This document shows positions 1,352 through 50,642 of a stretch of 64,000 bases of DNA, in pieces. The DNA is taken from NCBI GenBank assembly GCA_013822345.1, contig PNKH01000032.1, positions 643 through 64,642 on the forward strand, in the 5' to 3' direction. The stretch comes from Isosphaera sp. Lineage in GTDB: Bacteria > Planctomycetota > Planctomycetia > Gemmatales > Gemmataceae. Both the position numbers and the translations under genes were made by a program. Every line of letters starts with the position of its first letter. The first letter of the stretch is position 1. The notes beneath the pieces were generated by a model. It had not been told where the DNA came from and did not search any database. It worked only from the letters and a program-made list of their open reading frames with translations.

Positions 1352-1439
1352 GGAACCCGTGGCGGGTGAGGCGGCACGCGGTTCGATACGCCCCCTCCCG
1401 AACGAACATCCGGGGCCGATACGGGCGGAGACGTTGACC

Positions 1440-3323: not shown

Positions 3324-3378
3324 TTGGCCCGCGACGGTTGATCCGAGGGTAATCAGAACCCGCAACTAGGAGACGGAC

Positions 3379-3912: not shown

Positions 3913-3942
3913 TTGATCCGTGTTGTCGAACGGGAGAACTCG

Positions 3943-5271: not shown

Positions 5272-5405
5272 CGGCGGCCGGTCGCAGGGTGGTGGCATTG
5301 CGAACCAGAGGCCGCGAGACGGAAACGGCGTCTGGAACCCGGCGCGGCCGTCGCAAGTGAACCCGCGGTCCCGTTGCCCGGACGGGCCGCACTCGGGAGG
5401 GCGTC

Positions 5406-5903: not shown

Positions 5904-6083
5904 CACGCCGGCGGGGTCGGTTCATCCGATCACGGCCGGGTTGTACCGTCTCTCGGGCCGGGCGCTTCGCGGGGTGCGGGCCGAACCCCCAATCGGGCGG
6001 CACTGCCCGCCGTGGCGTCGGGTAGAATTCGGTGGTGCGGGGAACGGCTGGCGGGCGCGTGACCCTAACTGAAGAGGTGCCTC

Positions 6084-27530: not shown

Positions 27531-27872
27531 ATGCGAGCGTTCGTTACCGCGTGCCTGGCGGCGGTGGCCGTCGCTTTCTCCGCCGGCGTCGCGTCAGCCC
27601 AGCACGGTGGGGGCCACGGCGGCGGTCACGTCGTCGTTCCGGCCCACGCCGGGGGTCACGCCCCGGTCTACCACCCGCCGGCGCACTACGCCCACGGCGG
27701 GTACGCCGTCCCCTCCGGCGGGTTCGGCATCGGGGTGTACGCGGGGCCGACCTACGGGCCGCCGGTCGGCGCCTACCCCGGCCCTGCGGTGGTTCCCGCC
27801 CCGTACTACCCCGGGTACGGCTCCGGCTACAGCTACGGCCACCACCGACCTCACCGCCTGTTCCACCATTGA
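27531..27872 (+). CDS. Small secreted Gly/His/Tyr/Pro-rich protein
   Basis: GAGGAG RBS; signal peptide ending ASA; QHGGGHGGGH...HHRPHRLFHH. Confidence 0.65.
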   Translation: MRAFVTACLAAVAVAFSAGVASAQHGGGHGGGHVVVPAHAGGHAPVYHPPAHYAHGGYAVPSGGFGIGVYAGPTYGPPVGAYPGPAVVPAPYYPGYGSGYSYGHHRPHRLFHH

Positions 27873-27975
27873 TCCCGACTCGGGATCGCGCGGCTGCCAG
27901 GGCGGGTCCGGGGCCGATGGGGCTGCGGCCCGCCGGGCCGCCTGGTGGACGCGCTCTTCTGGAGACCGACGAACG

Positions 27976-29439
27976 ATGCATGGCGACCCTTCGGCCCCAC
28001 CGGCCATCCCCCGCCGTGGCATCGGATTCCACACGGCTGTTGCGGTGAACGTCGTGCTGCTCGCCGGCGTCGCCGGGTTCCTGGTGTTCGATGCCGCCCG
28101 GGAGACCCGACAGCGGGAGCGGGAGAAGGTAACCGCGCTGGACGAGGAGGCGATGACCCTGCACCAGGCCGTCGCCCACCTCACCCACCACTCGGCGGAC
28201 GAGATCCAGGCGTTCGTGGACGGGGTGTGCGGGCGGATGACCGACGCGGCCTCGCCGGGTCATCATATCGTGGCCGAGGCGGGCGGGCGGGTGTACCAGG
28301 CCCGCGCCCACGGGCGGGACTCGGACGACACCGTCCGGACAGTCCGCGCGGCCGCACAGGCCCCCGACCGCCGGGGCGCGATCCAGGGGGAAGTTGTCGT
28401 CGTCGGGACGCACGACGAGGGCGGCGTCCGCGTCTTCGTGGCCGAGCGGCTGGACACCATCCGCCGCGAGGTCCGCACCCAGGTCGCCCTCCGGGCCGCG
28501 GGGGTGCTGGCGTTCGGCCTGGTGCTGGCGGCGGCCGTCAACCTCACCGTCTACCGGCTGGTGACCCGCCCGCTGCGGCGACTGGCGCGAACCCTCGGGG
28601 CGATCCGGGCCGGTGAGCTGGGGGCCCGGGCGGGCGCGTACAAAAGCCGGGAACTCGCCGTCCTGGCCGCCGCCGTGAACGACATGAGCCGGGCGCTGGC
28701 CGCGGACGAGGCCCGCCGCCGGGCGGCCATCGCGCACGCCCGGCGGGTGCAGGAGAACCTGCTGCCGAAGCCCGCCCGGGCGGTCCCCGGGGTCACGATC
28801 GCCGCCGTCCACCACCCGGCCGACGGGGTGGCCGGGGACTACTACGACGCCCTCCCGCTCCCCGACGGGTCGGTGCTGGTGTGCGTGGCCGACGTGGTCG
28901 GGCACGGGGTGCCGGCGGCGATGGTGGCGGCCGTCCTCAAGGTGCTGGTGCTGGACGCGGCCGAGGCCGACCCGGACCCCGGGCGGGTGGTGCGGCGGGT
29001 GAACGCCCGGTTCACCGCCCTCGGCATCCCGGACGGGTTCGCGTCGCTCCTGGTCGCCCGCTGGTGCCCCGCGCGGCAGACTCTGTGGTACGCCAGCGCC
29101 GGGCACGAGCCGGGGTTGTTGGCGGCCGGCTCGGACCCGCCGGTCCCCCTCGACGCGACCGGCACGCTGCTCGGCGTTGTGGAGGACGGGGAGTGGGCAA
29201 GCCTCGCCGTTCCGGCCGGTTCGGGGGCCACGCTGCTGTTGCTGACCGACGGGGTCACGGAAGCGATGGACGCGGACGGCGTCCAGTTCGGACGGTCCCG
29301 GCTGCGCGAGGTCGTTGCCGGGGTCGGGAGCGGGGATCCCGAGCGCGTGGTCGGGGCGGTGGACGCGGGCGTGCGGGAGCACCTGGCCGGCCACCCGCCG
29401 GCGGACGACTACACCCTAGTGGTTGTCCGGTTCGGGTGA
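27976..29439 (+). CDS. Membrane SpoIIE/RsbU-type PP2C phosphatase with HAMP domain
   Basis: Two TMs, HAMP (RPLRRLA...RELAVLAAAVNDM), VAGDYYD, VADVVGHG, SAGHEP, LLTDGVTEA, DDYTLV. Confidence 0.88.
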   Translation: MHGDPSAPPAIPRRGIGFHTAVAVNVVLLAGVAGFLVFDAARETRQREREKVTALDEEAMTLHQAVAHLTHHSADEIQAFVDGVCGRMTDAASPGHHIVAEAGGRVYQARAHGRDSDDTVRTVRAAAQAPDRRGAIQGEVVVVGTHDEGGVRVFVAERLDTIRREVRTQVALRAAGVLAFGLVLAAAVNLTVYRLVTRPLRRLARTLGAIRAGELGARAGAYKSRELAVLAAAVNDMSRALAADEARRRAAIAHARRVQENLLPKPARAVPGVTIAAVHHPADGVAGDYYDALPLPDGSVLVCVADVVGHGVPAAMVAAVLKVLVLDAAEADPDPGRVVRRVNARFTALGIPDGFASLLVARWCPARQTLWYASAGHEPGLLAAGSDPPVPLDATGTLLGVVEDGEWASLAVPAGSGATLLLLTDGVTEAMDADGVQFGRSRLREVVAGVGSGDPERVVGAVDAGVREHLAGHPPADDYTLVVVRFG

Positions 29440-30948: not shown

Positions 30949-31266
30949 TCAGCCAGTCCGGTATCGGGCGACCAGCCCGTCCAGGTCCGGGGCCGACCGC
31001 AGGTGGTCGAGGGCCAGCCGGACCAGCTCCTCGATGGTCAGCTTGGGGGCGCGGGGGTGCCGCCGGTGGTACGTCCGGGCCTGGTCCTGGAGCCAGGCGA
31101 TCTGGTCGGCCCGGACACGGGTCGTCAGCTTGCACGTCCCGGTGCCCGGCTCGGCAGCCGCGGCCGGGGGACGGGCTTCGATCAGGGCGGCCGCCCGGTC
31201 GCCGGCGTCGGCCCGTCGGGGGGCGGCGAGCGGGACGGCCGCCCGGAGCTGTTCGCGGCTACTCAT
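30949..31266 (-). CDS. Small ParA partner, possible ParG/RHH-type DNA-binding protein
   Basis: Overlaps the parA stop; KLTTRVRADQIAWL...LTIEELVRLALDHL fits a strand-helix-helix pattern. Confidence 0.55.
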   Translation of the reverse strand: MSSREQLRAAVPLAAPRRADAGDRAAALIEARPPAAAAEPGTGTCKLTTRVRADQIAWLQDQARTYHRRHPRAPKLTIEELVRLALDHLRSAPDLDGLVARYRTG

Positions 31267-32035
31267 CCCCCAGCACCTCCGCGGTCAGGGCCCCCATCTC
31301 GCGGGCCGCCCGGGGAGCGGTCCCGGCCGGGTGCCGGGCGGCGTAGTCGTACACCGTCTCCCCGTTCGCCCGGGCCTTCGGGAACGCCTCCGAGCGGTGG
31401 ACGCGGGTCTCGTACACGGCCGCCCCGAGCGGGGCCAGGTGGTCGTCCAGCCAGTCGTTGAGCACCTTCCGGCGGGCGTCCACCTGCGTCACGACCACCC
31501 GGCAGAAGCCGGCCGGGTCCAGTTCCGGGCGGTGGGTGAGGTAGGTCTGCACGGTGCGGAACGTCCGCCCCAAGCTGCGGACCGACTCGGCGTCGGCGTC
31601 GCACGGCAGGATCGCCCGGTCGGCCGCCATGACGGCGTTGAGCGTCACCAGGTCGAGCGTCGGCGGGGTGTCGATAACCACGGCGTCGAACCGGCCGCGG
31701 AGGTCACCGAGTGCCAGCCGGAGGGCCGTCGCACGGTTCGGGAGGGCGGCGAACGACTCCGGCTCCAGCCCCGGGTCGCCGGGGGCGACGAACAGGTTCG
31801 GGGTCGGGGCGGGGACGATCACGTCGGCCAGCACCCGGGCGGCGATGGCGTCGGCCAGCGGGATGAGCCCGTCCGGTGGTTGCACGCCGGCCCCCGGGGC
31901 GGCCGGGGCCTGGGGGTCGAGGTCGAGGAGCAGCGTGCGGCGGCCGGCGCGGGCCAGGCCGGCGGCGAGGTGGATCGCGGTGGTCGTCTTGGCGACCCCG
32001 CCCTTCTGTTGGGTGACGGCGATGGTGACGGTCAT
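31259..32035 (-). CDS. parA: ParA-family partition ATPase
   Basis: QQKGGVAKTTT, LLDLDPQ, VIDTPP; no N-terminal HTH (type Ib-like). Confidence 0.88.
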   Translation of the reverse strand: MTVTIAVTQQKGGVAKTTTAIHLAAGLARAGRRTLLLDLDPQAPAAPGAGVQPPDGLIPLADAIAARVLADVIVPAPTPNLFVAPGDPGLEPESFAALPNRATALRLALGDLRGRFDAVVIDTPPTLDLVTLNAVMAADRAILPCDADAESVRSLGRTFRTVQTYLTHRPELDPAGFCRVVVTQVDARRKVLNDWLDDHLAPLGAAVYETRVHRSEAFPKARANGETVYDYAARHPAGTAPRAAREMGALTAEVLGDE

Positions 32036-32188
32036 GGTTCTCCGTGAGGGTGGTTGCCGGCCGGGGTCCGCCCGGCCGTCACCCGGCAGCCTGCCACGGG
32101 CCGGGCCGTCGTGGCAAGTCCCTGCCGGGGGGTTACGGTTTCGCGGCCGGGATACGGCCGGTTCGCGGCCGGCATCCGCCCGGCGGCA

Positions 32189-32204
32189 GGCCGGTTGAGT
32201 AGGC
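32189..32204. promoter_or_regulatory. 16-bp motif ggccggttgagtaggc, identical copy at 42390-42405
   Basis: Exact match in two intergenic regions (upstream of parA and upstream of mobC). Confidence 0.5.
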
Positions 32205-32471
32205 TTGCGAGTGGCGCTACGCTGGAGCGGCCCGGTGAAACGGAGACTGGCTCTGCGGGGACGCAACCACGTCGAGGGATAGCCGGGCCGACGGTGCGTC
32301 GATGGACGCCGTTCGAGCGCCCCGGCGGGAGCTTCATCTCTCCCGCCGGGGCCGTTTTCGCTCAGGTTCTCGGGCTTCGGCCGGGTGTGCCCCGAACCAA
32401 ACACCCGCAACCCCTGGTGTGAGGAATGTGGCGGACCACCGCAACTTGCAACGGGGCGGGGCGCTTGACAG

Positions 32472-37281: not shown

Positions 37282-38229
37282 TCACCTCGGCGACGACGGG
37301 ACGGCCGTCACCGTCGGGAAGGTGCGGGACGTGCTGACCGCCTCCGGGCTCCCGATACCTAGGGTCCGCAGCCGGAAGCTGCCGGCGGTCTTCTTCAGGT
37401 TGACCACGCTCAGCCGGACCGGCCGGCCGTCGTAGTGCAGGACGAGGCCGGCGGCGTCGAGGAAGGCGTTCACGCGGGCGGTCACGTCCCGGGCCTGGCT
37501 GGCCTGGGCGGCGGACTTCCCGGCCAGGGCGTCCAAGATCGGCTGGAGTCGGGCCGCGGCCTCGGCGGGTGTCCCGCCCACGACCCGCAGGGCAGCCAGG
37601 TCGGTGACGGCTTCGGCCGAAAACAACTCGTGTGCCTTCGGCTTGCGGCCGGCCGGGGCGGTCGCGGACCGGGCCGGGGTGGTGGTCGTCGCGAACTCGA
37701 CCCGCACCCAGCCGCCGCCCCCGGGGTGATAGACCACCGTCCGTCCCGGTTGGGCGACCTTCGGCCCGCGGAGTCCGCTCAGGTAGGCCGCCAGTACGGC
37801 GGTGAAGTCCGGGCCGAAGGTCACGCCGGTGCCGGCCGCCTGGCCGGTGAAGTGCAGGTACCGACCGCGGCCGGCGATCGCCAGGTCGGCCGCGGTCATC
37901 TCGGCCGTCCGCACCGCCTCCTCGAACGCCACCTTGAACACCCAACCGCGGGTCGCGTCCGTCCCGGCGAGCAGTTGCCGGGGGAGCGGCCCGAGGCCGG
38001 GTTCTGCGTCCCAGGTCCGCCACTCGTTCCCGGCCAGGTCGAGATAGACGGCGAACGGTTTCGGTTCGGGCGGGGCCGGCGCGCGCGGCCCCGTGCCCGT
38101 CGGTACGGGTTCCCGGCCGCCGCCGCGGGGTTCCCGCCCGAGGTCGAGCGGGCGGGACGCCGGGTCCGTGCCCGGCTGCTGCCGGCCGCGACCCCGGCCG
38201 CCTCCCGAATCGCCCGTCTTGTCCGCCAT
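37282..38229 (-). CDS. Hypothetical protein
   Basis: Long ORF with GC-rich third positions, divergent from parB; start uncertain (38229 or 38253). Confidence 0.6.
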   Translation of the reverse strand: MADKTGDSGGGRGRGRQQPGTDPASRPLDLGREPRGGGREPVPTGTGPRAPAPPEPKPFAVYLDLAGNEWRTWDAEPGLGPLPRQLLAGTDATRGWVFKVAFEEAVRTAEMTAADLAIAGRGRYLHFTGQAAGTGVTFGPDFTAVLAAYLSGLRGPKVAQPGRTVVYHPGGGGWVRVEFATTTTPARSATAPAGRKPKAHELFSAEAVTDLAALRVVGGTPAEAAARLQPILDALAGKSAAQASQARDVTARVNAFLDAAGLVLHYDGRPVRLSVVNLKKTAGSFRLRTLGIGSPEAVSTSRTFPTVTAVPSSPR

Positions 38230-38339
38230 CTTATTCCCCTCGGTCCCGGCCATTATCCGCGTTCGCACACCCGTTTTCGACCCTTCTCTGCCGGCAGCGG
38301 TTGGTGCGGGCATTTCGTGAGCAGGGGGCTTGGCGCTGT

Positions 38340-38362
38340 TTGGATTACAATATAGAATCCAA
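38340..38362. promoter_or_regulatory. AT-rich 7-9-7 inverted repeat in a divergent promoter
   Basis: ttggatt-acaatatag-aatccaa. Confidence 0.55.
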
Positions 38363-38422
38363 TTAGCACCCGCCACCCCAACTCGCTCACAAGTCGTTCG
38401 CCTGCCTCCCACGGAGAATCCG

Positions 38423-39304
38423 ATGACCGCCCCGCCGCAACCCACACCGGCTGCCACCCCGCCGCCGGCCGGGCCGATCCGTGACATCCCACTCGACCAG
38501 ATCCACACCGCCAAGCAGCCCCGCGAGGGGTTCGACGAGGCCCGGATGGCCGAGCTGGTGGCCAGCTTCAAAGCCGTCGGCCAGCTCGCGCCGGTCCGCG
38601 TCCGGCCCCGCCCGGCCGGCGGGTTCGACCTGGTCTTTGGCGAGCGCCGCTATCGCGCCGCCAAGCAAATCGGCTGGACATCAATCCGGGCCGAGGTGGC
38701 GGCCGGCGACCCGTCCCCGGCCGACGTGCTCCACGAGCAACTGGCCGAGAACTTGTTCCGCGACGCCTTCAAGCCGGTCGAGCGGGCCCGCGGGTTCCGC
38801 GACCTCATGCAACTGAAGGGGTGGACCGCCAAGCAACTGGCGGCGGCACTCGCCCTGTCCGAGGCGACCGTCAGCCAGGCTCTGCGGCTCCTCGACCTGC
38901 ACCCGGACCTACAAGCCGCGATCGACGCCGGCCGGGTGACGGCCGCCGCCGGGTACGAGTTGGCGAAGCGCCCGGTTGCCGAGCAGCAGGAGGCGGCCCG
39001 GCAGGCCCGCCAGGGGCGTCCGGCCCGCGCGGGGGCCAAGGCGAAGGCCGCCAAGCGGCCGCCCCTGACCCTCTCCCTGCCCGGCAACCACTTCGACTTC
39101 GAGGTGGTCGGCAACCGGGTGACGGTCAAGGGCAAGGAGATCGACTCCGTCCGCCTGCTGAACGACGTGCTGCTCGAACTCGTCGCCGCCGTCCGCGCCC
39201 ACCTCCGCTCGACCGAGCTTCCGAACGCGAACACGAAGTCGAAATCTCAACCGCTCGCCCCTCACCCCAAGCCGTCCGACCCGGACGGCCGTGCGTCCGC
39301 GTGA
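38423..39304 (+). CDS. parB: ParB/RepB/Spo0J-family protein
   Basis: IPLDQI...QPRE.FD, GQLAPVRV, LVFGERRYRAA, QLAENL.R, HTH (WTAKQLAAALALSEATVSQAL). Confidence 0.85.
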   Translation: MTAPPQPTPAATPPPAGPIRDIPLDQIHTAKQPREGFDEARMAELVASFKAVGQLAPVRVRPRPAGGFDLVFGERRYRAAKQIGWTSIRAEVAAGDPSPADVLHEQLAENLFRDAFKPVERARGFRDLMQLKGWTAKQLAAALALSEATVSQALRLLDLHPDLQAAIDAGRVTAAAGYELAKRPVAEQQEAARQARQGRPARAGAKAKAAKRPPLTLSLPGNHFDFEVVGNRVTVKGKEIDSVRLLNDVLLELVAAVRAHLRSTELPNANTKSKSQPLAPHPKPSDPDGRASA

Positions 39305-39321
39305 CGCGAAGGAGGACTGCC

Positions 39322-40035
39322 GTGTCCCAGTTAGCCGTGTCCAAGTGGCTCCCGCCGGCCTTGGTGCCGCTCGCCCGGCGGAAGCCCGCGCCCCCGTCGG
39401 CCAGCCCCAACCCGCGGGTACCGTGCGTCGTGGTCCTCGACTGCTCGACCTCGATGGCCGGCGACCCAATCACCCAGGTGAACGCCGGGACGGCCGAGTT
39501 CGCCCGGTTCCTCAAGGCCGATCGCCTGACCGCGGCCGACGTCGAGGTCGCCGTGGTGACGGTCGGCGGCGAGGCGAAGGTCGCCCACCCGTTCACCCCC
39601 GCGGCGGAGTTCGACCCGCCGGTCCTGACTGCCGGCGGCGGCACCCCGCTCGGCCGCGGGCTGGCCACCGGCCTGCAACTCCTCCACGAGCGGCAACAGG
39701 TGTACCGGGACCTCGACCTGGACGCCCACAAGCCGTGCCTGCTGCTCCTGACCGACGGGGCGGAGACCGCCTCCCCGGACGAGTTCCGCCGGGCCGGGGA
39801 AGCGACCCGCGCCCTCCAGCAGCGGGGCCTGATCCGCTTCTACCCCGTCGGCGTGGACGGGGCCGACATGGCGGCCCTGGCCACCCTCACGGTGGACGAG
39901 CCGTACCGGCTCCGCGGGCTGAACTTCCAGGCCCTGTTCGCCTGGCTCGGCCGATCCCTCCGGTCGGTCAGCCGCAGCCGACCCGGAGACGACTTCGAGC
40001 CGGACGACCCCCGCGACTGTGGGATCGCCGAGTGA
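39322..40035 (+). CDS. TerY/YegL-like vWA domain protein
   Basis: MIDAS VLDCSTSM, GGTPLG, LLLTDG, F.WLGRSLRSVSRS; GGAGG RBS and GTG start. Confidence 0.85.
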   Translation: MSQLAVSKWLPPALVPLARRKPAPPSASPNPRVPCVVVLDCSTSMAGDPITQVNAGTAEFARFLKADRLTAADVEVAVVTVGGEAKVAHPFTPAAEFDPPVLTAGGGTPLGRGLATGLQLLHERQQVYRDLDLDAHKPCLLLLTDGAETASPDEFRRAGEATRALQQRGLIRFYPVGVDGADMAALATLTVDEPYRLRGLNFQALFAWLGRSLRSVSRSRPGDDFEPDDPRDCGIAE

Positions 40036-40048
40036 GGGGGAAGTAATC

Positions 40049-41209
40049 GTGAAGCTGCGGTGCCACAAGTCCGGCGACGTGCTCACGCCCGCCGACCCAC
40101 TCGGGGTCGGCGGGCAGGCGTCCGTGTACGGCGTCGCGGGCCGACCGGACTTGGCGGTCAAGGTGTACGACACCCCGCCGACCGACCTCGGGGACCGGCT
40201 GGCCGCCATGCTCGCCCGCCCTCCGGCCGGGCTGCTGGACGTGACCGCCCCCGCAGCCGTCGCCTGGCCGCTCGACTCCGTGATCGGGGCGAACGGGCGG
40301 TGCGTCGGTTTGGTGCTCCCGCGGGTGACCGGACGGACCAGCTTCGGTGAGGTGGTCAACCCGGCCGCCCGCCCCGTCGGCGTCGGGTTCGGCGTGCTGG
40401 TGCGGGCTGCCCGGAACCTGGCGGCGGCGGTTGCGGGACTGCACGCGGCCGGCGTGCAGCCCGGCGACCTGAACCCGAACAACGCCCTGGTCGGGCCGAA
40501 CGGGGAGGTCGTTCTGATCGACACCGACTCCGCCCAAGTCCCGGCGCCAAACGGACTGTTCCGGTGCCCGGTCGGGGTGCCCGAGTGGCGGCCGCCGGAA
40601 CTGCAAGGGCTTCCGATCGGGTCGGTTGACCTCCGCCCGTGCCACGACTTGTTCGCCCTCGGGGCGTTGGTGTTCACGGCCTTGATGGACGGGAATCACC
40701 CGTTCGCCGGTGCCCCGGTCCGGGGAACTGCCGTCCCGGTGCCCGAGCGGATCAAACAAGGCTGGTGGCCGTACGCCCGGCGGTCGCCGTACCGCCCGCG
40801 CCGCCAGTCCCCGCCGTTCGCCGGGCTGCCCGGCGAAGTCCAAGCCCTGTTCCGGCAGTGTTTCGAGGCCGGGCACGCCGCGCCACTGGCCCGACCGTCG
40901 GCGACCACCTGGGTGGACGTGCTCGACCGTGTCCTGACCGGCCCGGTCGTCCCGCCCGCCGCGGCCACCCCGACCGTCACCGTCCCGGCTTCAACGATCT
41001 GGCCGGACTGGGTCCGCATCCGGGAGTGGGCCGCCCGCCGGTGGGGGCCGGTCCGGCGACGGCCTCGAACGGCGGCGGCCGTTGCGCTGCTGACCGCCGC
41101 CGGCGTCGCGGCGGGCGTGTGGGTGCAGAAACCGAAACAACCACCCGGCCCGGGCGGGAAACCGACCCCGGCCCTGTGGCAGGAACTCCGCCGCGAACCA
41201 CGGCGGTGA
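40049..41209 (+). CDS. YegI-like Ser/Thr kinase with C-terminal TM segment
   Basis: LGVGGQASVY, LAVKVY, VAWP, GDLNPNN, LIDTDS, PPELQG, DLFALG, GNHPF. Confidence 0.8.
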   Translation: MKLRCHKSGDVLTPADPLGVGGQASVYGVAGRPDLAVKVYDTPPTDLGDRLAAMLARPPAGLLDVTAPAAVAWPLDSVIGANGRCVGLVLPRVTGRTSFGEVVNPAARPVGVGFGVLVRAARNLAAAVAGLHAAGVQPGDLNPNNALVGPNGEVVLIDTDSAQVPAPNGLFRCPVGVPEWRPPELQGLPIGSVDLRPCHDLFALGALVFTALMDGNHPFAGAPVRGTAVPVPERIKQGWWPYARRSPYRPRRQSPPFAGLPGEVQALFRQCFEAGHAAPLARPSATTWVDVLDRVLTGPVVPPAAATPTVTVPASTIWPDWVRIREWAARRWGPVRRRPRTAAAVALLTAAGVAAGVWVQKPKQPPGPGGKPTPALWQELRREPRR

Positions 41210-41294
41210 CGTTTTCGCAGCCCTACTGGTTGCCCGGCGCTCGCCGGGCGGGGCGGCGAAGACGGATTGATGGTTCGAGTTCGGGAGACTTCCC

Positions 41295-42332
41295 ATGAAG
41301 AACGCAGTGTTCTTCGCGGCGGCCGTAACGGCCGCCACCCTGGCGGCCGCGGCCGCCAACGCGGCCGGGCCGGACGCGGCCCCGCCCGACCCGAAGGTGC
41401 GGATGGCCCAGATCGCCAAGGAGGAGGTCGAGTACGCCGAGAAGGCGCTCGCCAAGACCGAGGCGGACATCCTCAAGGAGGTGGACGAGGCCGTCGCCGG
41501 CATGGCCCTGGACAAGCCGGGGGCCGAGAAGCTGGCGGTCGACGGCATGCGTCGGGTGGCGGCCCGCGGTCGCGCCCTGGCCAAGAAGCTGGTCGAGGGG
41601 CACGCCGCCTACGCGGCCAGCGCCAAGGCGCTCAAGGGCGTCTACGCCCGCAGCCCGGCCGTGTTCCGGGACGCGGCCAAGACGTTCCGCGGGTACGCCG
41701 CCGAGGAGGAGTTCGAGGACATCCGCAAGGACTACCTCACCTGCGCCGAGACCTGGGAGTCGCTGGCCAAGGTGATGGAGAAGCGGGTCGAGGCGATCGC
41801 GGAGGAGGAGAAGGCGATCGCCGAGACGATGCGGATGGTCGAGCGGACCGGGGTGTTCCTGGAGCGGTTCGAGGCGCACCTGGCGAGCTATCCGGACCTG
41901 TCGGCCGGGGAGGACCGGCAGAAGTTCCTCGACCAGCTCCGGCGGTACGTGCAGACGTACGAGGGGCTGCGCGGGAGCCTGGGCAAGTTCAACGAGCAGC
42001 TCAAGAAGCAGGCCCTGGCCCCGGACCTCCGGCCCAAGGCCGGGGACGCGGCCGTCGCCAGCGGCCGGCCGGACGCAGCCCGGCAGCCGGCCGTCAACCC
42101 GGCGGTGAAGCCCGCGACCCCGGCCGAGCCGGCGGCCCCCGTCAATCACACCCCGGTGACGCCGGCGACAACCGCCGTCGCGGGGCAGGCTGACGGCACC
42201 GTGAGGATCCCGGTCGGCGAGTTCGTGGTTATCGAGAACGGCCGGGCCTACTTGGTCCGGATGTCGGTCCTCGCCCGCCCGGTGCCCGCCGCCGGGACTG
42301 GGAGCACCAGCCTGGCCATGACAGGCCGTTAG
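41295..42332 (+). CDS. Secreted coiled-coil protein
   Basis: Ala-rich signal peptide; long Lys/Glu/Ala helical region; Pro/Ala linker; short C-terminal beta domain. Confidence 0.7.
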   Translation: MKNAVFFAAAVTAATLAAAAANAAGPDAAPPDPKVRMAQIAKEEVEYAEKALAKTEADILKEVDEAVAGMALDKPGAEKLAVDGMRRVAARGRALAKKLVEGHAAYAASAKALKGVYARSPAVFRDAAKTFRGYAAEEEFEDIRKDYLTCAETWESLAKVMEKRVEAIAEEEKAIAETMRMVERTGVFLERFEAHLASYPDLSAGEDRQKFLDQLRRYVQTYEGLRGSLGKFNEQLKKQALAPDLRPKAGDAAVASGRPDAARQPAVNPAVKPATPAEPAAPVNHTPVTPATTAVAGQADGTVRIPVGEFVVIENGRAYLVRMSVLARPVPAAGTGSTSLAMTGR

Positions 42333-42341
42333 CCGTCTCTC

Positions 42342-42371
42342 GCCGGCCCGGGTATCGAACCCCGGGCCGGC
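42342..42371. terminator. 11-bp perfect hairpin after the kinase operon (terminator-like or oriT-associated)
   Basis: gccggcccggg-tatcgaac-cccgggccggc; no clear U-tract. Confidence 0.4.
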
Positions 42372-42466
42372 TCCCCTCCCGCCCGCGCGGGCCGGTTGAG
42401 TAGGCCCGCGGGGCGTGGTAGGGATCGCCCTCGAACCGCAATCAAACCCCGTTTTTCCGTGGTGCC

Positions 42467-42763
42467 ATGTCCACCCGTTCCAAACCGGTCGGCTTCCGCC
42501 TGTCCACCCCCGCCGCCAAGCGGCTTGCGGCCGCGGCCGCCCGGCACGGGCTGTCCCCGGGCACCTATGCCCGCCGGCTGGTGCTGGCGGGCCTGGACGA
42601 CGACGCCGGCCGGCAGGCGCTGGACGAACTGGCCGCCGTCCGGGAGCAGTTGGCCCGGCTTCGGGCCGACCTGGTCCGGGTCGCCGTGGCCCTCTTGACC
42701 GACGCCGGCAAGGCCGAACTGGACGATGCCGAGGCGTGGGCCCGCGATCACCTTCGGGGATGA
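42467..42763 (+). CDS. MobC-like relaxosome accessory protein
   Basis: KPVGFRL...KRLAAAAARHGLSPGTYARRLV RHH pattern followed by a coiled coil; directly upstream of the relaxase. Confidence 0.65.
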   Translation: MSTRSKPVGFRLSTPAAKRLAAAAARHGLSPGTYARRLVLAGLDDDAGRQALDELAAVREQLARLRADLVRVAVALLTDAGKAELDDAEAWARDHLRG

Positions 42764-42787
42764 CCTGTCATGTTGTGGGTGTTCGTC

Positions 42788-45298
42788 ATGCTGTCGATCT
42801 CCGCGATGGCCAACGGCCAGGAGAACTACTACCTGTCGCTCGCCCGGGAGGACTACTACCTCGCCGGCGGCGAGCCGCCCGGCCAGTGGGCCGGCGGCGG
42901 GGCCGCCCTCCTGCGGCTGGCGGGTGACGTCCGCCCCGACCAACTGCGGCCACTGTTCGCGGGGTTCGCCCCGCCCGGCCTCACGCCGGCCGTAGTCGGG
43001 TCGGACCGCACCAAGCTGGTGGCCAACGCCGGCGCGGACGACCGTCAAGCCGGGTGGGACCTGACGTTCTCCGCCCCGAAGAGCGTGAGCGTCTACTGGG
43101 CCCAGGCCGACGCGGACAGGCGGGTCGCCGTCCAAGCCGCGCAGGCGGCCGCGGTCCGGGCCGCCCTCCGCTACCTGGACGAGGAGTGTGCCTGGACCCG
43201 CCGGGGCAAGGGCGGGGTCGAGGTCGAGCGGTGCGGGCTGGTGACAGCCCTGTTCGAGCACGGCACGTCCCGCGCGCAGGACCCCAACCTGCACACCCAC
43301 GTCCTGGTCCTCAACGTCGGCGTCCGGGCCGACGGCACCACCGGCACCGTGCTGTCCCGGCCGTTCTACGAGGCCAAGATGGCGGCCGGGGCCGTCTACC
43401 GGGCGGAACTCGCCCACCAACTTCAACTCCGGCTCGGGCTTGAGTGCCGGGCGGAGAAGACGTGGTTCGAGCTGGCGAACGTCCCCCAGGCCGCCCTCGA
43501 CGCCTTCTCCACCCGCCGGGCGGAGATCGAGGCGTCGTTGAACGGGTCCGGCCGGTCCGGGCCGCGGGCCGCCGAGTACGCCGCCCTCGACACCCGAACG
43601 GCCAAGGAGTGCCGCCCCCGTGCCGACCTGTTCCACGACTGGCTGGCCGCCGGCCGGAACGTCGGGTTCGGTCCCGACCAGGCCCGCGACCTCGAAGGCC
43701 GTGTCCGCCCGGATGCCGACCCGGTGGCCCGGCTCCGGGCCGTCCTCGCCGAATCGGCCGTGGCACTGGCGGATAGCCTCGGCCATTTCACCGAGCGGGC
43801 GTTGTTGCGGCGGACGGCCGAGGCCGTCCAGACCGCCGGGGTGCCCGTCGCGGCCGTCCGGGCGGCGGTCAAGGATTACCTGCACCACTCCCCGGACCTG
43901 GTCCGGCTCGGCGACAAGGACCGGACGCCCCACTACACCACGGCCGACGTGTACGCCGTCGAGCAGGGTCTGCTCAAGCTCGCCCAGGCCGGGCACGGCA
44001 ACCGCCACCACGACCTCCCGAGCCGGACCGTCGAGGAAACGCGGGCCGCGTTCCCGCGGCTGAACGCCGAGCAGACGGGTGCCCTGCTGCACCTCGCCCG
44101 GGGCGGGGGCACGATCCGGGTCGTCGGCGGGCTGGCCGGAACCGGCAAGACGACACTTTTGGACGCGGCCCGCGACGCCTGGGAGCGGGACGGCCGCACG
44201 GTCGTCGGCGCGGCCCTGGCCGGCAAGGCCGCTCAAGGACTCCAGGACGGGGCGAAGATCGCCAGTGAGACGATTCACCGCCAACTGATGGACTTGGATT
44301 CCGGACGGCTGACGCTCGACGCCAAGTCCGTACTGGTGGTGGACGAGGCGGGGATGGTCGGCACCCGGCTGCTCGCCCGGCTGGCCGAACACGCCCGTAA
44401 GGCCGACGCCCTGCTGGTCCTGGTCGGCGACCACCGACAACTTCAGAGCATCGACGCCGGCGGGGCGTTCAAGGCCCTCGGCGACCGGCTCGGCCGGGCC
44501 GAGTTGACCCAGATCACCCGCCAGACGGAGCGGTGGGCGAGGGACGCCGTCCGCCAGGTGGCCGAGGGGGATGCGGCGGCGGCCCTCCGGAAGTTCGCCG
44601 ACCGCGGGCTACTGACGGTTTGTGACGACCGGTTTGCCGCAGCCCGGCAGATCGCCGCCGACTGGGGGCGGGCCGGGGCGGTGGCACCGGAGCGTCACCT
44701 GGTCTTCACGGGCGAGAACCGGGACGCCGCTCTCCTCAACCGGCTGTGTCAGGCCGAGCGGGCGGCTCGGGGGTTTCTTCACGGCCCCGGAGTCGATGTC
44801 GGTGGCGACCATTATCGGGCCGGCGACCGGGTGCTGTTCACCCGCAACTCGAAGCTGGTCGGCGTGAAGAACGGCAGCCTCGGCACCGTGACCGGGGTCA
44901 ACCCGGCGACCCAGGCCCTCCGCGTCCGACTGGATGGCGGGGCGACCGTCCACGTCCCACTCTCCGAGTACGCCCACCTGCGGCTCGGCTACGCGGTGAC
45001 CACGCACAAGGGCCAGGGGGTGACGGTGGACCACGCCTACGTGCTGGCCGGCGGGGCCATGACCGACCGCGAACTGTCTTACGTCCAACTCTCCCGGGCC
45101 CGCCACACCACCCGCGTCTACGTGGACCGAGCCGAGGCCGGGACGGACCTCGCCGACCTGGCCCGGGCCATGACCAAGTCGCGGCAGCACACCCTCGCCC
45201 ACGATGCCGTCCCAACCCAGGCTCCCCAGCCGAAGGCGGCCCCGACTCCCGATCCCGATCCGAAACCCGCCCCCCTTCGCCCGGAGGTATCCCGATGA
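42788..45298 (+). CDS. mobF: MOBF (TrwC-type) relaxase fused to RecD-like helicase
   Basis: NYYLSLAREDYY, DLTFSAPKSVS, HGTSRAQDPNLHTH; GLAGTGKT, VDEAGM, GDHRQL, GYAVTTHKGQG. Confidence 0.93.
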   Translation: MLSISAMANGQENYYLSLAREDYYLAGGEPPGQWAGGGAALLRLAGDVRPDQLRPLFAGFAPPGLTPAVVGSDRTKLVANAGADDRQAGWDLTFSAPKSVSVYWAQADADRRVAVQAAQAAAVRAALRYLDEECAWTRRGKGGVEVERCGLVTALFEHGTSRAQDPNLHTHVLVLNVGVRADGTTGTVLSRPFYEAKMAAGAVYRAELAHQLQLRLGLECRAEKTWFELANVPQAALDAFSTRRAEIEASLNGSGRSGPRAAEYAALDTRTAKECRPRADLFHDWLAAGRNVGFGPDQARDLEGRVRPDADPVARLRAVLAESAVALADSLGHFTERALLRRTAEAVQTAGVPVAAVRAAVKDYLHHSPDLVRLGDKDRTPHYTTADVYAVEQGLLKLAQAGHGNRHHDLPSRTVEETRAAFPRLNAEQTGALLHLARGGGTIRVVGGLAGTGKTTLLDAARDAWERDGRTVVGAALAGKAAQGLQDGAKIASETIHRQLMDLDSGRLTLDAKSVLVVDEAGMVGTRLLARLAEHARKADALLVLVGDHRQLQSIDAGGAFKALGDRLGRAELTQITRQTERWARDAVRQVAEGDAAAALRKFADRGLLTVCDDRFAAARQIAADWGRAGAVAPERHLVFTGENRDAALLNRLCQAERAARGFLHGPGVDVGGDHYRAGDRVLFTRNSKLVGVKNGSLGTVTGVNPATQALRVRLDGGATVHVPLSEYAHLRLGYAVTTHKGQGVTVDHAYVLAGGAMTDRELSYVQLSRARHTTRVYVDRAEAGTDLADLARAMTKSRQHTLAHDAVPTQAPQPKAAPTPDPDPKPAPLRPEVSR

Positions 45299-47277
45299 CA
45301 TCCCGCTGGACCCCGGTCCTCGCCCCGCCCGCGCTGCTCCTGATCGCCGCCGCCTGCGGGCTGGCCGGCTACCGGCTGACCGCCGCCATCGACTACCCGA
45401 TCTGGGCGATGGTTGTAGCCGGGGCGATCGCCGGGTACGCCGCCTGGACGGTCGGCGACGGCCGCTACTCCGACCTCCGCCAGCGGCAGCGGCAGGGCGG
45501 CCCGCCGTCGCTCGACGCCCTGGCCGGGCTGCTCGCCCGACTCGAACTGCTGTTCGCCTTGCAACTGCTGACGGCGGCCGCCGTGTACCGGCTCGCGGCC
45601 GGCGCCTGGCCGGACGGCCCGCTGGCCGCCTTCTTCCCGGACGGGCGGCCGGACCGCGGCACCGAACTGGCCGACCGGCTGGTCCGGGAGATGGGTCGGC
45701 TGGTTCCCGCCCTGCTCGCGGTCGGGGCGGTACAGCACGTGGCAAGCCGGTTGCTGTTCCCCGACCACCCGTTCGAGCCGTTCGCCCGCGGCCGCCAACT
45801 GTCCACCGCCGGGGCGGCCCGCCGGAAGGCCGACCGCGCCCGGCCGCCCGACGACCCCGGGCTGCCGTGGGGGGCGTGCCGGCTGCCGTCCGCGGCCGCC
45901 GTCCTGCACTGGCTGGTGGTCGGCACCACCGGGTCGGGCAAGACGCTCACCCTGCGGCTGCTCATGCAGGACGCCCTGCGGCTCATCACCCCCGGCTCGG
46001 ACGCCCGGGCTCTGGTGTACGACGCCAAGCGGGACGCCCTCCCGCTCCTGGCCGGGATGGGGCTGTCCTGCCCGGTCAAGACCCTCAACCCGCTGGACGA
46101 GCGGGGGGTGGCCTGGGCGATCGCCCGGGACTGCACCGCCCCGGCCACCGCCGTCCAGCTCGCCGAGGTGTTCGTCCCGGACCAGGACCGGGGCGACAAC
46201 GGCTTCTTCGCCAAGGCCGTCCGCGACCTCTTGTCCGGGGTGTTCACCGCCCTCGACCTGACGGCCCCGCGGGCCTGGACCCTGCGCGACGTGGTCCTGG
46301 CCATGACCTCGCCCCGGCTCCGGGAGCTGCTGGACCGGTTCGACGAAACCCGCGACCGGCTCCGGTACTTCGCCGACGACCGGACCCTGGCCAACATCAT
46401 GGCCACCGTCAGCACCGAACTGGCCCCATACCGGGCCGTCGCCGCCGCCTGGGACCGTGCCCCGAACGCCATCAGCCTGGCAGACTGGGTGCGGGGCGAG
46501 TTCGTCCTGGTCCTCGGCAACGACGAGTCCGTCCGGGCCCCGCTCGACGCCATCAACCGGGCGATCGTCCAGCGGGCCACCGAACTCCTCCTCAACCTGC
46601 CGGAGTCCTCGACCCGCCGGGTCTGGCTGTTCCTCGACGAGGTCCGGGAGGCCGGTCGGCTGGACGGCCTGCGGTCGCTGCTCAACAAGGGGCGGTCGAA
46701 GGGGGCGTGCGTGGTCCTCGGGTGCCAAGCCATTGAGGGGCTGTGGGCCGAGTACGGCAGGGACGAGGCGAACGAGATCGCTGGGGAGTGCAACCACGCC
46801 GCCTTCCTGCGGGTCGAGAGCCCGGAGACGGCCCGGTGGATGGCCGACCGGGTGGGCGAGTTCGAGCGGCGGGAGGTGAAGCCGGGCCAGGCCGGCGGGG
46901 CCGGCCAGACCTCGCTTAGTGAGGACACGGCCCGGCGGCCGGTGGTGCTGCCGTCGGAGTTCCAGGACCTGCCGGTGACCGACCGGGCCAACGGGCTGAC
47001 CGGCTACTACCTGAGCCCGGTCACCGGGGTCTACCGGCACACCACGCCGTCCGCCGACCTGACCGCCCGGTTGCTGCCGCCGGACGCCAACACGCCCGAC
47101 CACGTCCCGCGGCCGGCCGACGCCCAGTACCTGCGACCGTGGGACGCCGACGACCTACGCCGGCTCGGCTTCGCGGCGGAGCCGCCGCCGGTCCCGCCGC
47201 CCCCCGCCCCGACGCCCCAGCCCGACCCGAAACCGCGGCTGAAGGTCGTCAAGCGACAGACCACGGACCGGACGTAA
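45295..47277 (+). CDS. Type IV coupling protein (TrwB/TraD-like)
   Basis: N-terminal TMs; GTTGSGKT, VYDAK, NPLDERG..W, LFLDE, KGRSKG.CVVLG.Q; ATGA overlap with the relaxase stop. Confidence 0.9.
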   Translation: MTSRWTPVLAPPALLLIAAACGLAGYRLTAAIDYPIWAMVVAGAIAGYAAWTVGDGRYSDLRQRQRQGGPPSLDALAGLLARLELLFALQLLTAAAVYRLAAGAWPDGPLAAFFPDGRPDRGTELADRLVREMGRLVPALLAVGAVQHVASRLLFPDHPFEPFARGRQLSTAGAARRKADRARPPDDPGLPWGACRLPSAAAVLHWLVVGTTGSGKTLTLRLLMQDALRLITPGSDARALVYDAKRDALPLLAGMGLSCPVKTLNPLDERGVAWAIARDCTAPATAVQLAEVFVPDQDRGDNGFFAKAVRDLLSGVFTALDLTAPRAWTLRDVVLAMTSPRLRELLDRFDETRDRLRYFADDRTLANIMATVSTELAPYRAVAAAWDRAPNAISLADWVRGEFVLVLGNDESVRAPLDAINRAIVQRATELLLNLPESSTRRVWLFLDEVREAGRLDGLRSLLNKGRSKGACVVLGCQAIEGLWAEYGRDEANEIAGECNHAAFLRVESPETARWMADRVGEFERREVKPGQAGGAGQTSLSEDTARRPVVLPSEFQDLPVTDRANGLTGYYLSPVTGVYRHTTPSADLTARLLPPDANTPDHVPRPADAQYLRPWDADDLRRLGFAAEPPPVPPPPAPTPQPDPKPRLKVVKRQTTDRT

Positions 47278-47375
47278 TCGACCCCGCCCGTTAGACCGGG
47301 CAAGTGGTCCGGCCGACGAATGCCCACAGTTCGGCGACTGGCGGCCCCGGTCGTGACCTTCGACGAGGACCGACG

Positions 47376-48164: not shown

Positions 48165-48605
48165 ATGGAGATCATTCACCAACGCCCGGCGGGGTGGCCG
48201 ACCGTGGTCGGAGGCGGTGGCAACGCCCTCCCGTGCGGCACGCGGGCGGTGCCGGCACGGCCGCCTGCCGCCCCCTTGAGTGCCGCCGTCCGACCCAGGC
48301 CGAACAAAGCGAGCGCGGCGGCCCCGCCACAAACCGGTGACTGTTTCGTGGTCGTCAACTGCCGCGGGCAATGCTGGGACGGGGCGACGTGGGTTGACCG
48401 CTGGGACAAGGCGCTCCAGTTCCGCCGCCCGTCTTCTGCTTACGAGCTGTGCGACAGCGCCGCCCGCGAGGCGGAGCGGATGACCGGCGTGGCCGGCATG
48501 GTGAGCTACATCCCGCCCGGCACGCCGCCGGTGTCCCTGGCCCCCTTCCCCGACCTATCTCAAGTCGACTTGCGGGACTTCGCCCTCAAGCCCGAGGTGT
48601 GCTGA
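48165..48605 (+). CDS. Hypothetical protein convergent on the integrase
   Basis: The C-terminal half (CFVVVNCRGQCWDG...) reads as coding; start uncertain. Confidence 0.45.
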   Translation: MEIIHQRPAGWPTVVGGGGNALPCGTRAVPARPPAAPLSAAVRPRPNKASAAAPPQTGDCFVVVNCRGQCWDGATWVDRWDKALQFRRPSSAYELCDSAAREAERMTGVAGMVSYIPPGTPPVSLAPFPDLSQVDLRDFALKPEVC

Positions 48606-50173
48606 ATCGCCAGCTTCTTGATCGTCCCGTTCCGGAGGTGAATCTGAACCTGGGCGACGCGGCTCATGTGGGTCACGCGGGTGATGTGGACCCAGATTTC
48701 GCTGACCACGCTACGGACCTTCGCCTTCAGCTTCCGCCGCACCTCTTTCAGTTCGTCGCCCCTCACCGATCCGAGCAAGCCGAGTAACGACTGCACTTCG
48801 CCGAGGTTGACCGCCTTGCAACTCGCGGCGTCGGCCTTCAACTCCTCCAGGCGGCGGACCGTCTCCCGCTTGGTCTTGTGCAACGTCTTGAGCAGCCCGA
48901 CGTAGACTTCCGGTGTTTCTTCTTCCGGGTCCGACGCCTTCTGCTCGGCGTCCTGGATGCGGTGGTCGAGCACGACCAACTTGCCGGTGAGGTCGGCGAT
49001 CTCTGCCTCACGCTCGTCACCCTCCTCTTCTCCTCCGAGGACATCGGCGGCTGTCAGTTCGGAGAGGGCCTGGAGGACGGCCTGCTCGAATGGCGGGTAG
49101 GGGAACGACAACCCTTTTCCCCGGCGCGTCGATCCGTTTGCCGTCGCCCCGGAAGTGAGGTAGCGGTACGGCCGCGTTTCCCCGCCGGCGGTGGTCGCCT
49201 GCCGGAACGTGTGGACCGACATCGTGGTCCGGTCCTCGGCGTGGAAGACGATCCCGGTGAACAGGTTCGTCTCGAACTCGCCCGGCCTTCCCATCACGCG
49301 GAACCTCGCCTTCATCCCGGCCTGGACCTGGAAGAACAGTTCCTCACTGATGACCGGCGGGAAATAGTTCTTGATCGGCTGGCCACAATCGACCCGCTTG
49401 TTCCCCTCTTCCCGCATCTGGGGTTGGAACTCTCCGAACGTCGCCCGGTTGGACAGGATCTGGAGGACGTAGGAATCACGCCACCGCCCGGAATCGCCGA
49501 ACGGCGGGTGCTTCTTCGGGTTGGCGACCAAGTAGTTCAGGATGCGTTGTACCCCCATGCCCTCGGCACTCAACCGGAAGATTTCGCGGACGGTCGCCGC
49601 CCGGTCGGGGATGAGCTTGTAGCCCTTCTCGGTCAGTTCCAACCAGCGAGGGGCCATCCTGGTCATCGGCAGCCCTTGTGTCGCCGCCCGCTCCTTCTTC
49701 TTGGCCCAGGCGTCTTTCAACCGGAACGACTTCGTGGCCGACTCCTCGTGGGCACGGCTCATGTAGATGAGCGGTTCCAGAAGGGCGGCGATGTCGTTGA
49801 TCGAGTCCTGCGTGTACGTCCGCCGCGGTTCGCGGGTGACTATCGAGACCCCGCTGTTTAGGATGGAAATGAAGAGCTGGAGCGCCGCGCCGACCTTGTT
49901 CCGCGAGAGCCGGTCGATGCTCTCAATGATCAGGACCGATCCCCTCAGCACCCGTCCGGTGCGGATCGCCTCCAGGAACTCGGCGAGGGCACCGACCTTG
50001 GCGTTGTTGCCCCGAAAGGCCGAGACGCCGAGATCGTTCAGTGTCAAGGTCTCGTCGAGCACCCAACCGTTCTCGCGGCAGACTTCGACGGCGAACTCGG
50101 CCTGGCGGCGGAACGATTCGCCCCTCTGCTGCTTTTTGGACGAGAATCGGATGTAGGAGAACGCTCGTGACAT
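48560..50173 (-). CDS. Large serine recombinase (integrase)
   Basis: YIRFSS catalytic motif, GESFRRQ, GVSAF, IESIDRLSR, recombinase domain, long coiled coil. Confidence 0.93.
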   Translation of the reverse strand: MSRAFSYIRFSSKKQQRGESFRRQAEFAVEVCRENGWVLDETLTLNDLGVSAFRGNNAKVGALAEFLEAIRTGRVLRGSVLIIESIDRLSRNKVGAALQLFISILNSGVSIVTREPRRTYTQDSINDIAALLEPLIYMSRAHEESATKSFRLKDAWAKKKERAATQGLPMTRMAPRWLELTEKGYKLIPDRAATVREIFRLSAEGMGVQRILNYLVANPKKHPPFGDSGRWRDSYVLQILSNRATFGEFQPQMREEGNKRVDCGQPIKNYFPPVISEELFFQVQAGMKARFRVMGRPGEFETNLFTGIVFHAEDRTTMSVHTFRQATTAGGETRPYRYLTSGATANGSTRRGKGLSFPYPPFEQAVLQALSELTAADVLGGEEEGDEREAEIADLTGKLVVLDHRIQDAEQKASDPEEETPEVYVGLLKTLHKTKRETVRRLEELKADAASCKAVNLGEVQSLLGLLGSVRGDELKEVRRKLKAKVRSVVSEIWVHITRVTHMSRVAQVQIHLRNGTIKKLAIQHTSGLRAKSRKST

Positions 50174-50238
50174 GGGAGCTTCCGTGCTTTTGCGGCGAAC
50201 GACCATGACGGCACCTCGACCCGTGGGAAGTTTATGGT

Positions 50239-50275
50239 ATTATATGCAAAGTGGCCAGCCGTTCGACATCGCGAC
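50239..50275. other. Putative att junction of the island
   Basis: AT-rich element sequence switches at about 50259 into ccgttcgacatcgcgacgtgc (PFDIATC of YgiQ). Confidence 0.65.
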
Positions 50276-50642
50276 GTGCATGTACTACACCGGGATCGAC
50301 CCGTTCACGAACAAGCCGGTGAAGACGGCGAAGAACCTCGGCGACCGGAAGCTGCAGCGGGCGCTGATGCAGTTCTTCAAGCCGGAGAACTACTTCGCGG
50401 TGCGGGAGGCGCTGGTGAAGGCCGGCCGGGGCGACCTGATCGGCGGGTGCGACGGGCTGATCCCGTCCGACCCGCCGAAGGACGCGATCGAGGCCCGCCG
50501 GCGGTCGGCGAACAGCCCCGACCACTACCACGCCGTCCCGAAGACGGCCGCGAAGACTGGTTACCGCCCGAACCGCCCGACGCAGACCCGCCGAACGAAG
50601 CCGGGCCGCGGCCCGAACCCGTCCCCCCCGACCGGAGGCTAA
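50259..50642 (+). pseudogene. ygiQ: 3' remnant of a YgiQ-family radical SAM gene (DUF3362-like C-terminal domain)
   Basis: PFDIATCMYYTGIDP...RKLQRALMQFFKPENY..VREAL.KAGR.DLIG; the whole radical SAM core is missing. Confidence 0.8.

Follow-up and report, generated by a model that had tools for sequence, protein, structure and literature searches.

TerY-P triads, defined by Anantharaman et al. 2012 (as relayed in PMC4978471 and PMC11090510), combine the genes for a vWA protein, a PP2C phosphatase and a kinase, as in yegL-pphC(yegK)-yegI of Escherichia coli. The canonical triad, also called the 'Gao_TerY' defence system, was reported to be anti-phage, protecting against T7-like phages (PMC7699616, PMC11090510), and TerY-P kinases can be fused C-terminally to a Zn ribbon or an OB fold (PMC11090510). 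Triads are widespread, yet neither the role of yegL-pphC-yegI in E. coli nor the mechanism of phage defence is understood. Here we describe a relative of this system in Isosphaera sp. (contig PNKH01000032.1 of assembly GCA_013822345.1), located in a stretch of 64,000 nt, the whole of which is called the window in the following. Four genes at positions 38423-42332 encode a ParB/KorB-like protein, a TerY/YegL-like vWA protein, a YegI-family Ser/Thr kinase and an exported helical protein. The last three form a module, which is embedded in an operon for a relaxase and a type IV coupling protein (T4CP).

The module and the triad have in common homologous vWA proteins and kinases, a vWA gene that is tightly coupled upstream, and a kinase associated with the membrane. 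In the triad, however, a PP2C gene lies next to the vWA and kinase genes, whereas the module has none. The tail of the element kinase is about 90 aa long, with one transmembrane helix and without the Zn ribbon, OB fold or helix-hairpin-helix region of TerY-P kinases. Moreover, the module adds one or two exported helical proteins and is part of a relaxase/T4CP operon, whereas triads are found in a chromosomal or defence-island setting.

The surrounding genes resemble MOBF-type DNA transfer and replication (Dtr) operons such as trwA-trwB-trwC of R388, which likewise have a ribbon-helix-helix protein, a TrwC-type relaxase-helicase and a TrwB-type coupling protein beside a conserved non-coding block. 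There is also a likeness to integrative mobilizable elements that have no type IV secretion system but a relaxase and their own coupling protein, in the terminal integrase and in that no mating-pore genes were seen. To our knowledge, the combination of Ser/Thr kinase, vWA protein and exported partner has not been described in any Dtr operon, and the present hosts are Planctomycetota. The locus adds to the picture of mobile-element organisation in this group, in which conjugation is essentially unstudied.

TerY-like vWA genes recur beside FtsK/EssC-like, SpoVK-like or VirB4-like ATPases in extended Type III-A CoCoNuT operons (PMC11090510). As in the present locus, the vWA protein is there linked to a hexameric translocase-type P-loop ATPase, and some of these operons also encode small secreted helical WXG100 proteins. 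CoCoNuTs, however, are restriction/defence loci with McrBC-type cores and full TerY-P triads, whereas the element has a conjugative coupling protein as its ATPase, and its exported proteins (250-370 aa) are unrelated to the WXG100 proteins (best match E 0.096). The single-gene defence kinases Stk2 and PD-T4-6 share the Hanks-type domain with the element kinase, the matches to PD-T4-6 being weak and confined to the catalytic core. Unlike the module, Stk2 and PD-T4-6 lack both a vWA and an exported partner and are not associated with transfer genes.

A conserved TerY-P derivative without the phosphatase

The four genes are co-directional on the plus strand and separated by gaps of only 17, 13 and 85 bp; every reading frame is intact, and third-codon-position G+C is 0.86-0.96 in three of the four. 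Directly downstream of the exported-protein gene follow the genes for NikA, the TrwC relaxase and the T4CP. The gene set, its tight spacing and the 13 bp between the vWA and kinase genes agree with an original prediction made from the sequence of this region.

That prediction had also described the module as phosphatase-less. A search with tblastn and a profile hidden Markov model (HMM) of four triad PP2Cs recovered no TerY-P-type PP2C from the window, read in all six frames, or from the 12 element loci related to it, whereas the same HMM run was positive for all 15 triad-annotated loci (E <= 7e-24). The description therefore stands, with the caveat that the element does encode one phosphatase domain. 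This belongs to a HAMP-SpoIIE membrane protein of the PPM family (27607-29439, plus strand, 610 aa), which is of a different subfamily from the TerY-P PP2C and lies about 9 kb upstream of the module, at the border of the metal cargo and the replicon (putative rep/ParA).

For comparison, a kinase-alignment profile search of species-representative genomes gave 25 loci, which were annotated with our own HMMs; a single-kinase query had found none. The 15 triad loci did not all come from this search, as the reference loci (E. coli, Granulicella, L009) are counted with them. These 15 stem from many phyla and have the composition vWA-PP2C-kinase (yegL-pphC-yegI in E. coli), and an exported protein, relaxase or T4CP was present in 0 of 15. 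In contrast, every complete element locus has the order vWA-kinase-exported protein(s) within a relaxase/T4CP operon, with a match to the HMM of the exported-protein family directly 3' of the kinase gene.

The module always shares its operon with the T4CP gene, being located ahead of nikA in some loci and after trwC but before the T4CP gene in others. Close relatives on metagenome contigs (kinase identity 55-79%) have the order [ParB]-vWA-kinase-(exported protein)-NikA-TrwC-T4CP, and L016 and L017 (relaxase identity 62-65%) share this order, with an excisionase-like and then a tyrosine integrase gene downstream. A Gemmataceae metagenome-assembled genome (L018, relaxase identity 50%; L022 is the same contig) has NikA-TrwC-three small genes-vWA-kinase-two exported proteins-T4CP. 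L019, L020, L021, L022 and L030, all labelled Gemmataceae or Frigoriglobus, combine vWA-kinase-exported protein with TrwC/T4CP and have no PP2C, while L046 (53% G+C) reads vWA-kinase-exported protein-NikA-T4CP with TrwC on the opposite strand. Where the genes of a locus were listed individually, trwC is immediately preceded by a NikA-like gene of 97-100 aa, except for L046, in which this gene precedes the T4CP gene. The host label of the element loci is Gemmataceae wherever the record is named. Thus, the expectation that homologous elements keep the four-gene order without PP2C was borne out for the vWA protein, the kinase and the exported protein, but not for ParB, which is absent from L006, L018-L021 and L046.

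The PP2C missing here is the sole support for regarding the locus as a decayed triad, in which a recent deletion in a single element left non-functional remnants behind. This we find barely credible: the same architecture recurs in 12 further loci at 39-81% kinase identity, catalytic and metal-site residues are invariant, the reading frames are intact and third-position G+C is high. Relatives with an intact triad were looked for, and 12 of 12 element loci were without PP2C, as expected of a variant rather than a local deletion. A simple PP2C deletion and a dead kinase are ruled out by the conserved architecture in the relatives, the invariant catalytic residues and the single clade formed by the kinases.

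Judged by sequence and gene content, these comparisons show a conserved TerY-P derivative that has lost the PP2C and the long C-terminal region of the kinase and has gained one or two exported helical proteins. The relaxase/T4CP operon that houses it belongs to a family of integrative elements in Gemmataceae-type Planctomycetota. A variant with both active sites, a fixed exported partner and a fixed genomic partner narrows the question of how the vWA-kinase core acts and on which target, and it points to an unnamed family of exported proteins without a Pfam model.

Active sites and topology of the vWA-kinase pair

The cytoplasmic vWA protein (39322-40035, plus strand, 237 aa; Pfam VWA 1.6e-8) starts with a GTG codon behind the Shine-Dalgarno sequence GAAGGAGG. 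It is 42% identical to E. coli YegL (pairwise E 2e-45), and in tblastn searches against annotated plasmid and chromosome records the vWA protein was nearest to yegL and the kinase domain to yegI, which confirms the families to which both had been assigned. The metal ion-dependent adhesion site (MIDAS) is intact (D40, S42, S44, T108, D145); among the element relatives, S42 is almost invariant and the other four residues are fully so. Also conserved is the C-terminal motif SLRSVSRS, which is common to YegL and of which two serines are invariant.

The kinase (40049-41209, plus strand, 386 aa, with the same product in the database gene model) starts with GTG 13 bp past the vWA stop codon, with GGGGGAAG in between. 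Its Pkinase match in Pfam (3.6e-7) is slightly under the gathering score; residues 8-293 align to E. coli YegI with 37% identity (E 5e-51), and the names given by JGI to close homologues are COG4248. Residues K38, D140, G21, G22, N145 and D158 are invariant in ten element kinases with identity down to 39%. K38 and D140 are the counterparts of K39 and D141 in YegI, two residues that an earlier study mutated (bioRxiv 10.1101/819920); the invariance of K38 and D140 argues that the kinase is not catalytically dead. Searches with PADLOC yielded only weak matches for the kinase, to PD-T4-6 (1e-6 to 1e-4), MkoA and mad6 (MADS6), and no match for the vWA protein, ParB or the exported protein.

A single hydrophobic segment of the kinase (residues 341-360), predicted to be a transmembrane helix, is preceded by an Arg-rich stretch and followed by a C-terminal tail of 25 aa. 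The Arg-rich stretch suggests an N-in/C-out topology, which would place the tail in the periplasm. This tail contains GGKPTPALW, and GG..TP.LW after the transmembrane segment is common to the aligned element kinases. The length after the kinase domain is 87-128 aa, with one transmembrane helix, in the element kinases vs 166-765 aa in most triad kinases not cut by a contig end; the latter usually have several transmembrane helices and often a C..H..C..C motif. No Cys/His (Zn-ribbon) motif follows the domain in any element kinase, and a Zn-ribbon-like motif is present in several triad and solo kinases. The notion of a membrane-anchored variant is consistent with the one predicted C-terminal transmembrane helix, but membrane association is a trait of the whole kinase family and hence not special to the element.

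Across all element loci, the gap between the vWA and kinase genes is 3-13 bp. Such tight translational coupling, together with the lack of a dedicated phosphatase, would suit an addiction module, in which a toxic kinase is restrained by the vWA or the exported protein and stabilises the element after excision or loss. We consider this quite improbable: known toxin-antitoxin pairs do not resemble a system of three or four genes that includes an exported component, and the fast turnover characteristic of addiction modules is not apparent. An element that is integrated and has its own ParA/ParB and integrase would also have less need of such a module.

Other arrangements of YegI-like kinases were seen on two contigs. 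An Anaerolineales contig (L031, 2202-9340) has three tandem kinase genes with no vWA or PP2C match nearby, and an Acutalibacteraceae contig (L039, 2169-17761) has an expanded cluster with two YegI-like kinases, three PP2C matches and four vWA matches.

An unnamed family of exported helical proteins

The last gene of the module (41295-42332, plus strand) encodes a protein of 345 aa with a predicted signal peptide, a helical domain (33-239), a Pro/Ala-rich linker and a beta hairpin (303-327). Its N-terminal hydrophobic segment covers residues 3-24 and is followed by an A-x-A site (ANA/AG). AlphaFold2 modelled residues 33-239 as an elongated bundle of four long helices (pLDDT >90), after which come the disordered linker and the small beta hairpin; overall pLDDT was 80 with an alignment of 51 sequences and 54 with 7 sequences.

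Comparison of this model with the PDB by Foldseek gave nothing below E 0.1. The best, non-significant likenesses were to elongated bundles, ClyA (TM-score 0.37, E 0.46-1.1) and chemoreceptor signalling domains, from which we draw no conclusion. A profile search of PDB sequences with the family returned designed helical bundles only, and Pfam and NCBIfam had nothing credible for the protein (LemA 0.023, WXG100 0.096), with sporadic coiled-coil matches only among 51 family members.

A profile search of 1.84 billion representatives with the family recovered 388 clusters at 50% identity with E <= 1e-3 and 66 with E <= 1e-30, compared with 7 clusters only in a word-based search and 3 loci only in a profile search of metagenome contigs. 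Its members include an extra 288-aa gene of L001, a 294-aa gene of L016 and both post-kinase genes of L018. Each element locus has one or two copies, with tandem pairs in L001 and L018-L021. In the paralogue pairs of L001 (11249-13354) and L018 (16028-17938), a short form without the C-terminal beta hairpin is accompanied by a long form that has it. In close relatives, the exported protein (helical domain) is 84-86% identical, vs 75-79% for the kinase.

Evolution of the module

Maximum-likelihood analysis of the kinase domains united the 11 element kinases in one clade (SH-aLRT 98) nested among the triad kinases, and the relaxase tree broadly mirrors the kinase tree. Identities of the vWA protein, the kinase and the exported protein to relatives track those of NikA, TrwC and T4CP. 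Compared with L002, they amount to 85% (vWA), 79% (kinase), 84% (exported protein), 80% (TrwC) and 81% (T4CP), and compared with L006 to 63%, 55%, 54%, 57% and 53%, respectively. L047 and L048, two relatives by relaxase with 56% and 51% identity, respectively, have NikA-TrwC-T4CP without the module, and both are nested among module-bearing elements. These sequence relationships are most simply explained if the element lineage captured a triad-derived pair once, inherited it together with the backbone for a long time and lost it at least twice, which makes the module an old but dispensable accessory.

The module had been predicted to be built into the transfer backbone. It does lie inside the relaxase/T4CP operon, but the backbone consists of relaxase and T4CP only, with no mating-pore genes seen, and the module is not needed in all relatives. 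Its role as an essential part of the minimal mating apparatus is ruled out by L047 and L048.

A possible link to DNA transfer

The constant placement in one operon with the T4CP, the co-divergence with the backbone, the strong conservation of the exported protein and the recurrent link of TerY-like vWA proteins to FtsK/VirB4-type ATPases (PMC11090510) lead us to favour, tentatively and at slightly less than an even chance, a one-way phosphorylation switch that connects a periplasmic signal to the transfer machinery. The kinase would be anchored N-in/C-out by its one transmembrane helix, with the short conserved GGxxTPxLW tail in the periplasm, where the exported helical protein(s) may bind this tail or act on it otherwise. 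A periplasmic or envelope event, e.g., contact with the secretion apparatus of a helper element or mating, would then turn on the cytoplasmic kinase. Its substrates could be the co-translated vWA protein, with candidate sites in SLRSVSRS, and/or the coupling protein or relaxosome, and the vWA protein might dock onto the phosphorylation target through its MIDAS site. With no dedicated phosphatase, the switch would be one-way during the short expression of the transfer operon, and ParB, where present, would most likely be a KorB-like regulator of the operon.

Several points weigh against such a switch. The proposed link of the kinase to the T4CP or relaxosome comes from gene order, the kinase tail is a putative binding site for the exported protein, and a regular expression for GGxxTPxLW did not find the motif in L019-L021 and L030. 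The HAMP-SpoIIE phosphatase encoded elsewhere in the element could act in trans on the substrates of the kinase. All runs in which the locus was found were DNA metagenomes, with no RNA run among them. Finally, the dispensability seen in L047 and L048 fits any accessory role, defence included, and the parent triad is reported as anti-phage (PMC7699616), with the kinase weakly matching the PD-T4-6 defence kinases.

Defence is the main rival explanation, possible but doubtful in our view. The TerY-P derivative would act against phages or plasmids by abortive infection, as an accessory that benefits the host, with exported protein and kinase sensing envelope damage or DNA injection and the kinase phosphorylating host or phage targets. 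The protection that the parent TerY-P system gives against T7-like phages (PMC7699616, PMC11090510) is compatible with this, as are the weak matches to PD-T4-6 and MADS6 kinases, the loss of the module in relatives and the presence of other defence cargo near it, namely CRISPR-Cas in L001 and AbiE in L018 and L047. However, in 13 of 13 loci the module is found within the relaxase/T4CP operon rather than at a variable cargo spot, and its divergence parallels that of the backbone. That the exported protein is more conserved than the kinase is the opposite of arms-race diversification, the vWA protein is without a PADLOC match, and both the PP2C and the nucleic-acid-binding tail of defence-type kinases are absent. 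Should the module nevertheless be a defence system, the TerY-P core would be shown able to work without its phosphatase.

If transfer is instead under the control of the phosphorylation switch, this would be the first case of conjugative DNA transfer gated by a kinase, a new regulatory principle that would have evolved from an anti-phage/stress triad. In its most specific form, which we deem rather unlikely, the proposal is that a mobilizable element lacking its own secretion system uses a previously unrecognised signalling device to detect mating or an envelope event on the periplasmic side, and that Ser/Thr phosphorylation then licenses its coupling protein or relaxosome.

ParB, promoter and a candidate oriT

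The gene that precedes the module (38423-39304, plus strand) encodes a ParB/KorB-like protein of 293 aa (Pfam ParB_N 8e-16, HTH_ParB 1e-12, TIGR00180 3e-32). It has the ParB_N and HTH domains of a ParABS system and, with GERRYRA, a CTP-binding-type motif (GxxRxxA), but no adjacent cognate ParA: the sole ParA of the window (31259-32410, minus strand), which has its own small downstream gene, is 6 kb away on the opposite strand. Similarly, L016 and L017 carry a ParB of the window type and no ParA within 10 kb.

Upstream of parB, a sigma-70-like promoter (TTGGCG-17-TAGAAT) overlaps the palindrome TTGGATT-N9-AATCCAA (38330-38370, plus strand). Two promoter-like sites were found vs 0.1 expected from shuffles. 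As a conserved operator, the palindrome is unsupported, being kept in the closest relative L001 only. Farther upstream lies a divergently transcribed gene of about 306 aa (37282-38200, minus strand); a divergent gene of about 300-320 aa occupies the equal position in L001, L002, L006, L016 and L017, with sequence similarity demonstrated for L001 only. In L001, a CRISPR-Cas cassette (367-6979; Cas3-like helicase, Cas_GSU0053, Cas_GSU0054) lies between the divergent gene of about 310 aa and a DUF7249 gene, indicating that the spot upstream of parB accepts defence cargo.

The 134-bp spacer between the exported-protein gene and nikA contains a GC hairpin and invariant short motifs and is kept even where the proteins are only about 55% identical. 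Its conserved non-coding block (42340-42460, plus strand) consists of the GC hairpin (42342-42371), followed by the invariant GTTGAGTA, GTG.TA..GATCG and AAAC...GTT, and is a candidate origin of transfer (oriT) and/or promoter of the nikA-trwC operon. The GTTGAGTAGGC core of this block (GTTGAGTAGGCC, 42395-42406) has a near-copy with one mismatch at 32194-32205, near parA; a relaxosome or partition protein may bind to both.

With this candidate oriT between the exported-protein gene and nikA, the module of the window-type layout would be on the side that enters the recipient first, and all its genes are on one strand and point towards the putative oriT. Leading-region genes of R388 and F offer an analogy for an establishment function in the recipient or for entry/surface exclusion, and exported and membrane components would suit a role at the envelope. 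We nevertheless regard such functions as improbable. In L018-L021 the module is located between trwC and the T4CP gene and would enter last, so the leading-region position is not conserved; moreover, oriT and nick site are putative, and exclusion proteins normally need no kinase and vWA partner.

Gene content of the element

The transfer genes downstream of the module comprise a NikA-like ribbon-helix-helix relaxosome accessory protein (42467-42763, plus strand, 98 aa; Pfam NikA-like 1.2e-4), a MOBF relaxase-helicase with TrwC and AAA_30 domains (42770-45298, plus strand, 842 aa; TrwC 5e-76) and the TrwB/VirD4-like T4CP (45295-47277, plus strand; TrwB_AAD_bind 3e-56). The start codon of the T4CP gene overlaps the trwC stop codon as ATGA (45295-45298), implying translational coupling, and this overlap is also found in L002, L006, L016 and L017.

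Of the components of a self-transmissible conjugative element, the relaxase and the coupling protein are thus present, but no mating-pair-formation families (VirB4-type ATPase etc.) were found among the main open reading frames of the window from 1 to 50 kb (Pfam) or in the gene lists of related loci. By its gene content, therefore, the element resembles an integrative mobilizable element in need of a helper's secretion system. A megablast search of 38000-47300 against plasmids gave no match; sequence of the element is present in DNA metagenomes of biofilter and drinking water.

Copper and other metal cargo occupies 1-27 kb of the window. Beyond the transfer genes, a serine recombinase (48560-50206, minus strand) is found next to a DUF3362 fragment of a radical-SAM gene (50172-50642). 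The type of recombinase varies among elements with an equal transfer operon: in place of the serine recombinase of the window, L016 (15393-16448) and L017 (15637-16692) have a tyrosine integrase, together with an HTH_17 excisionase-like gene.

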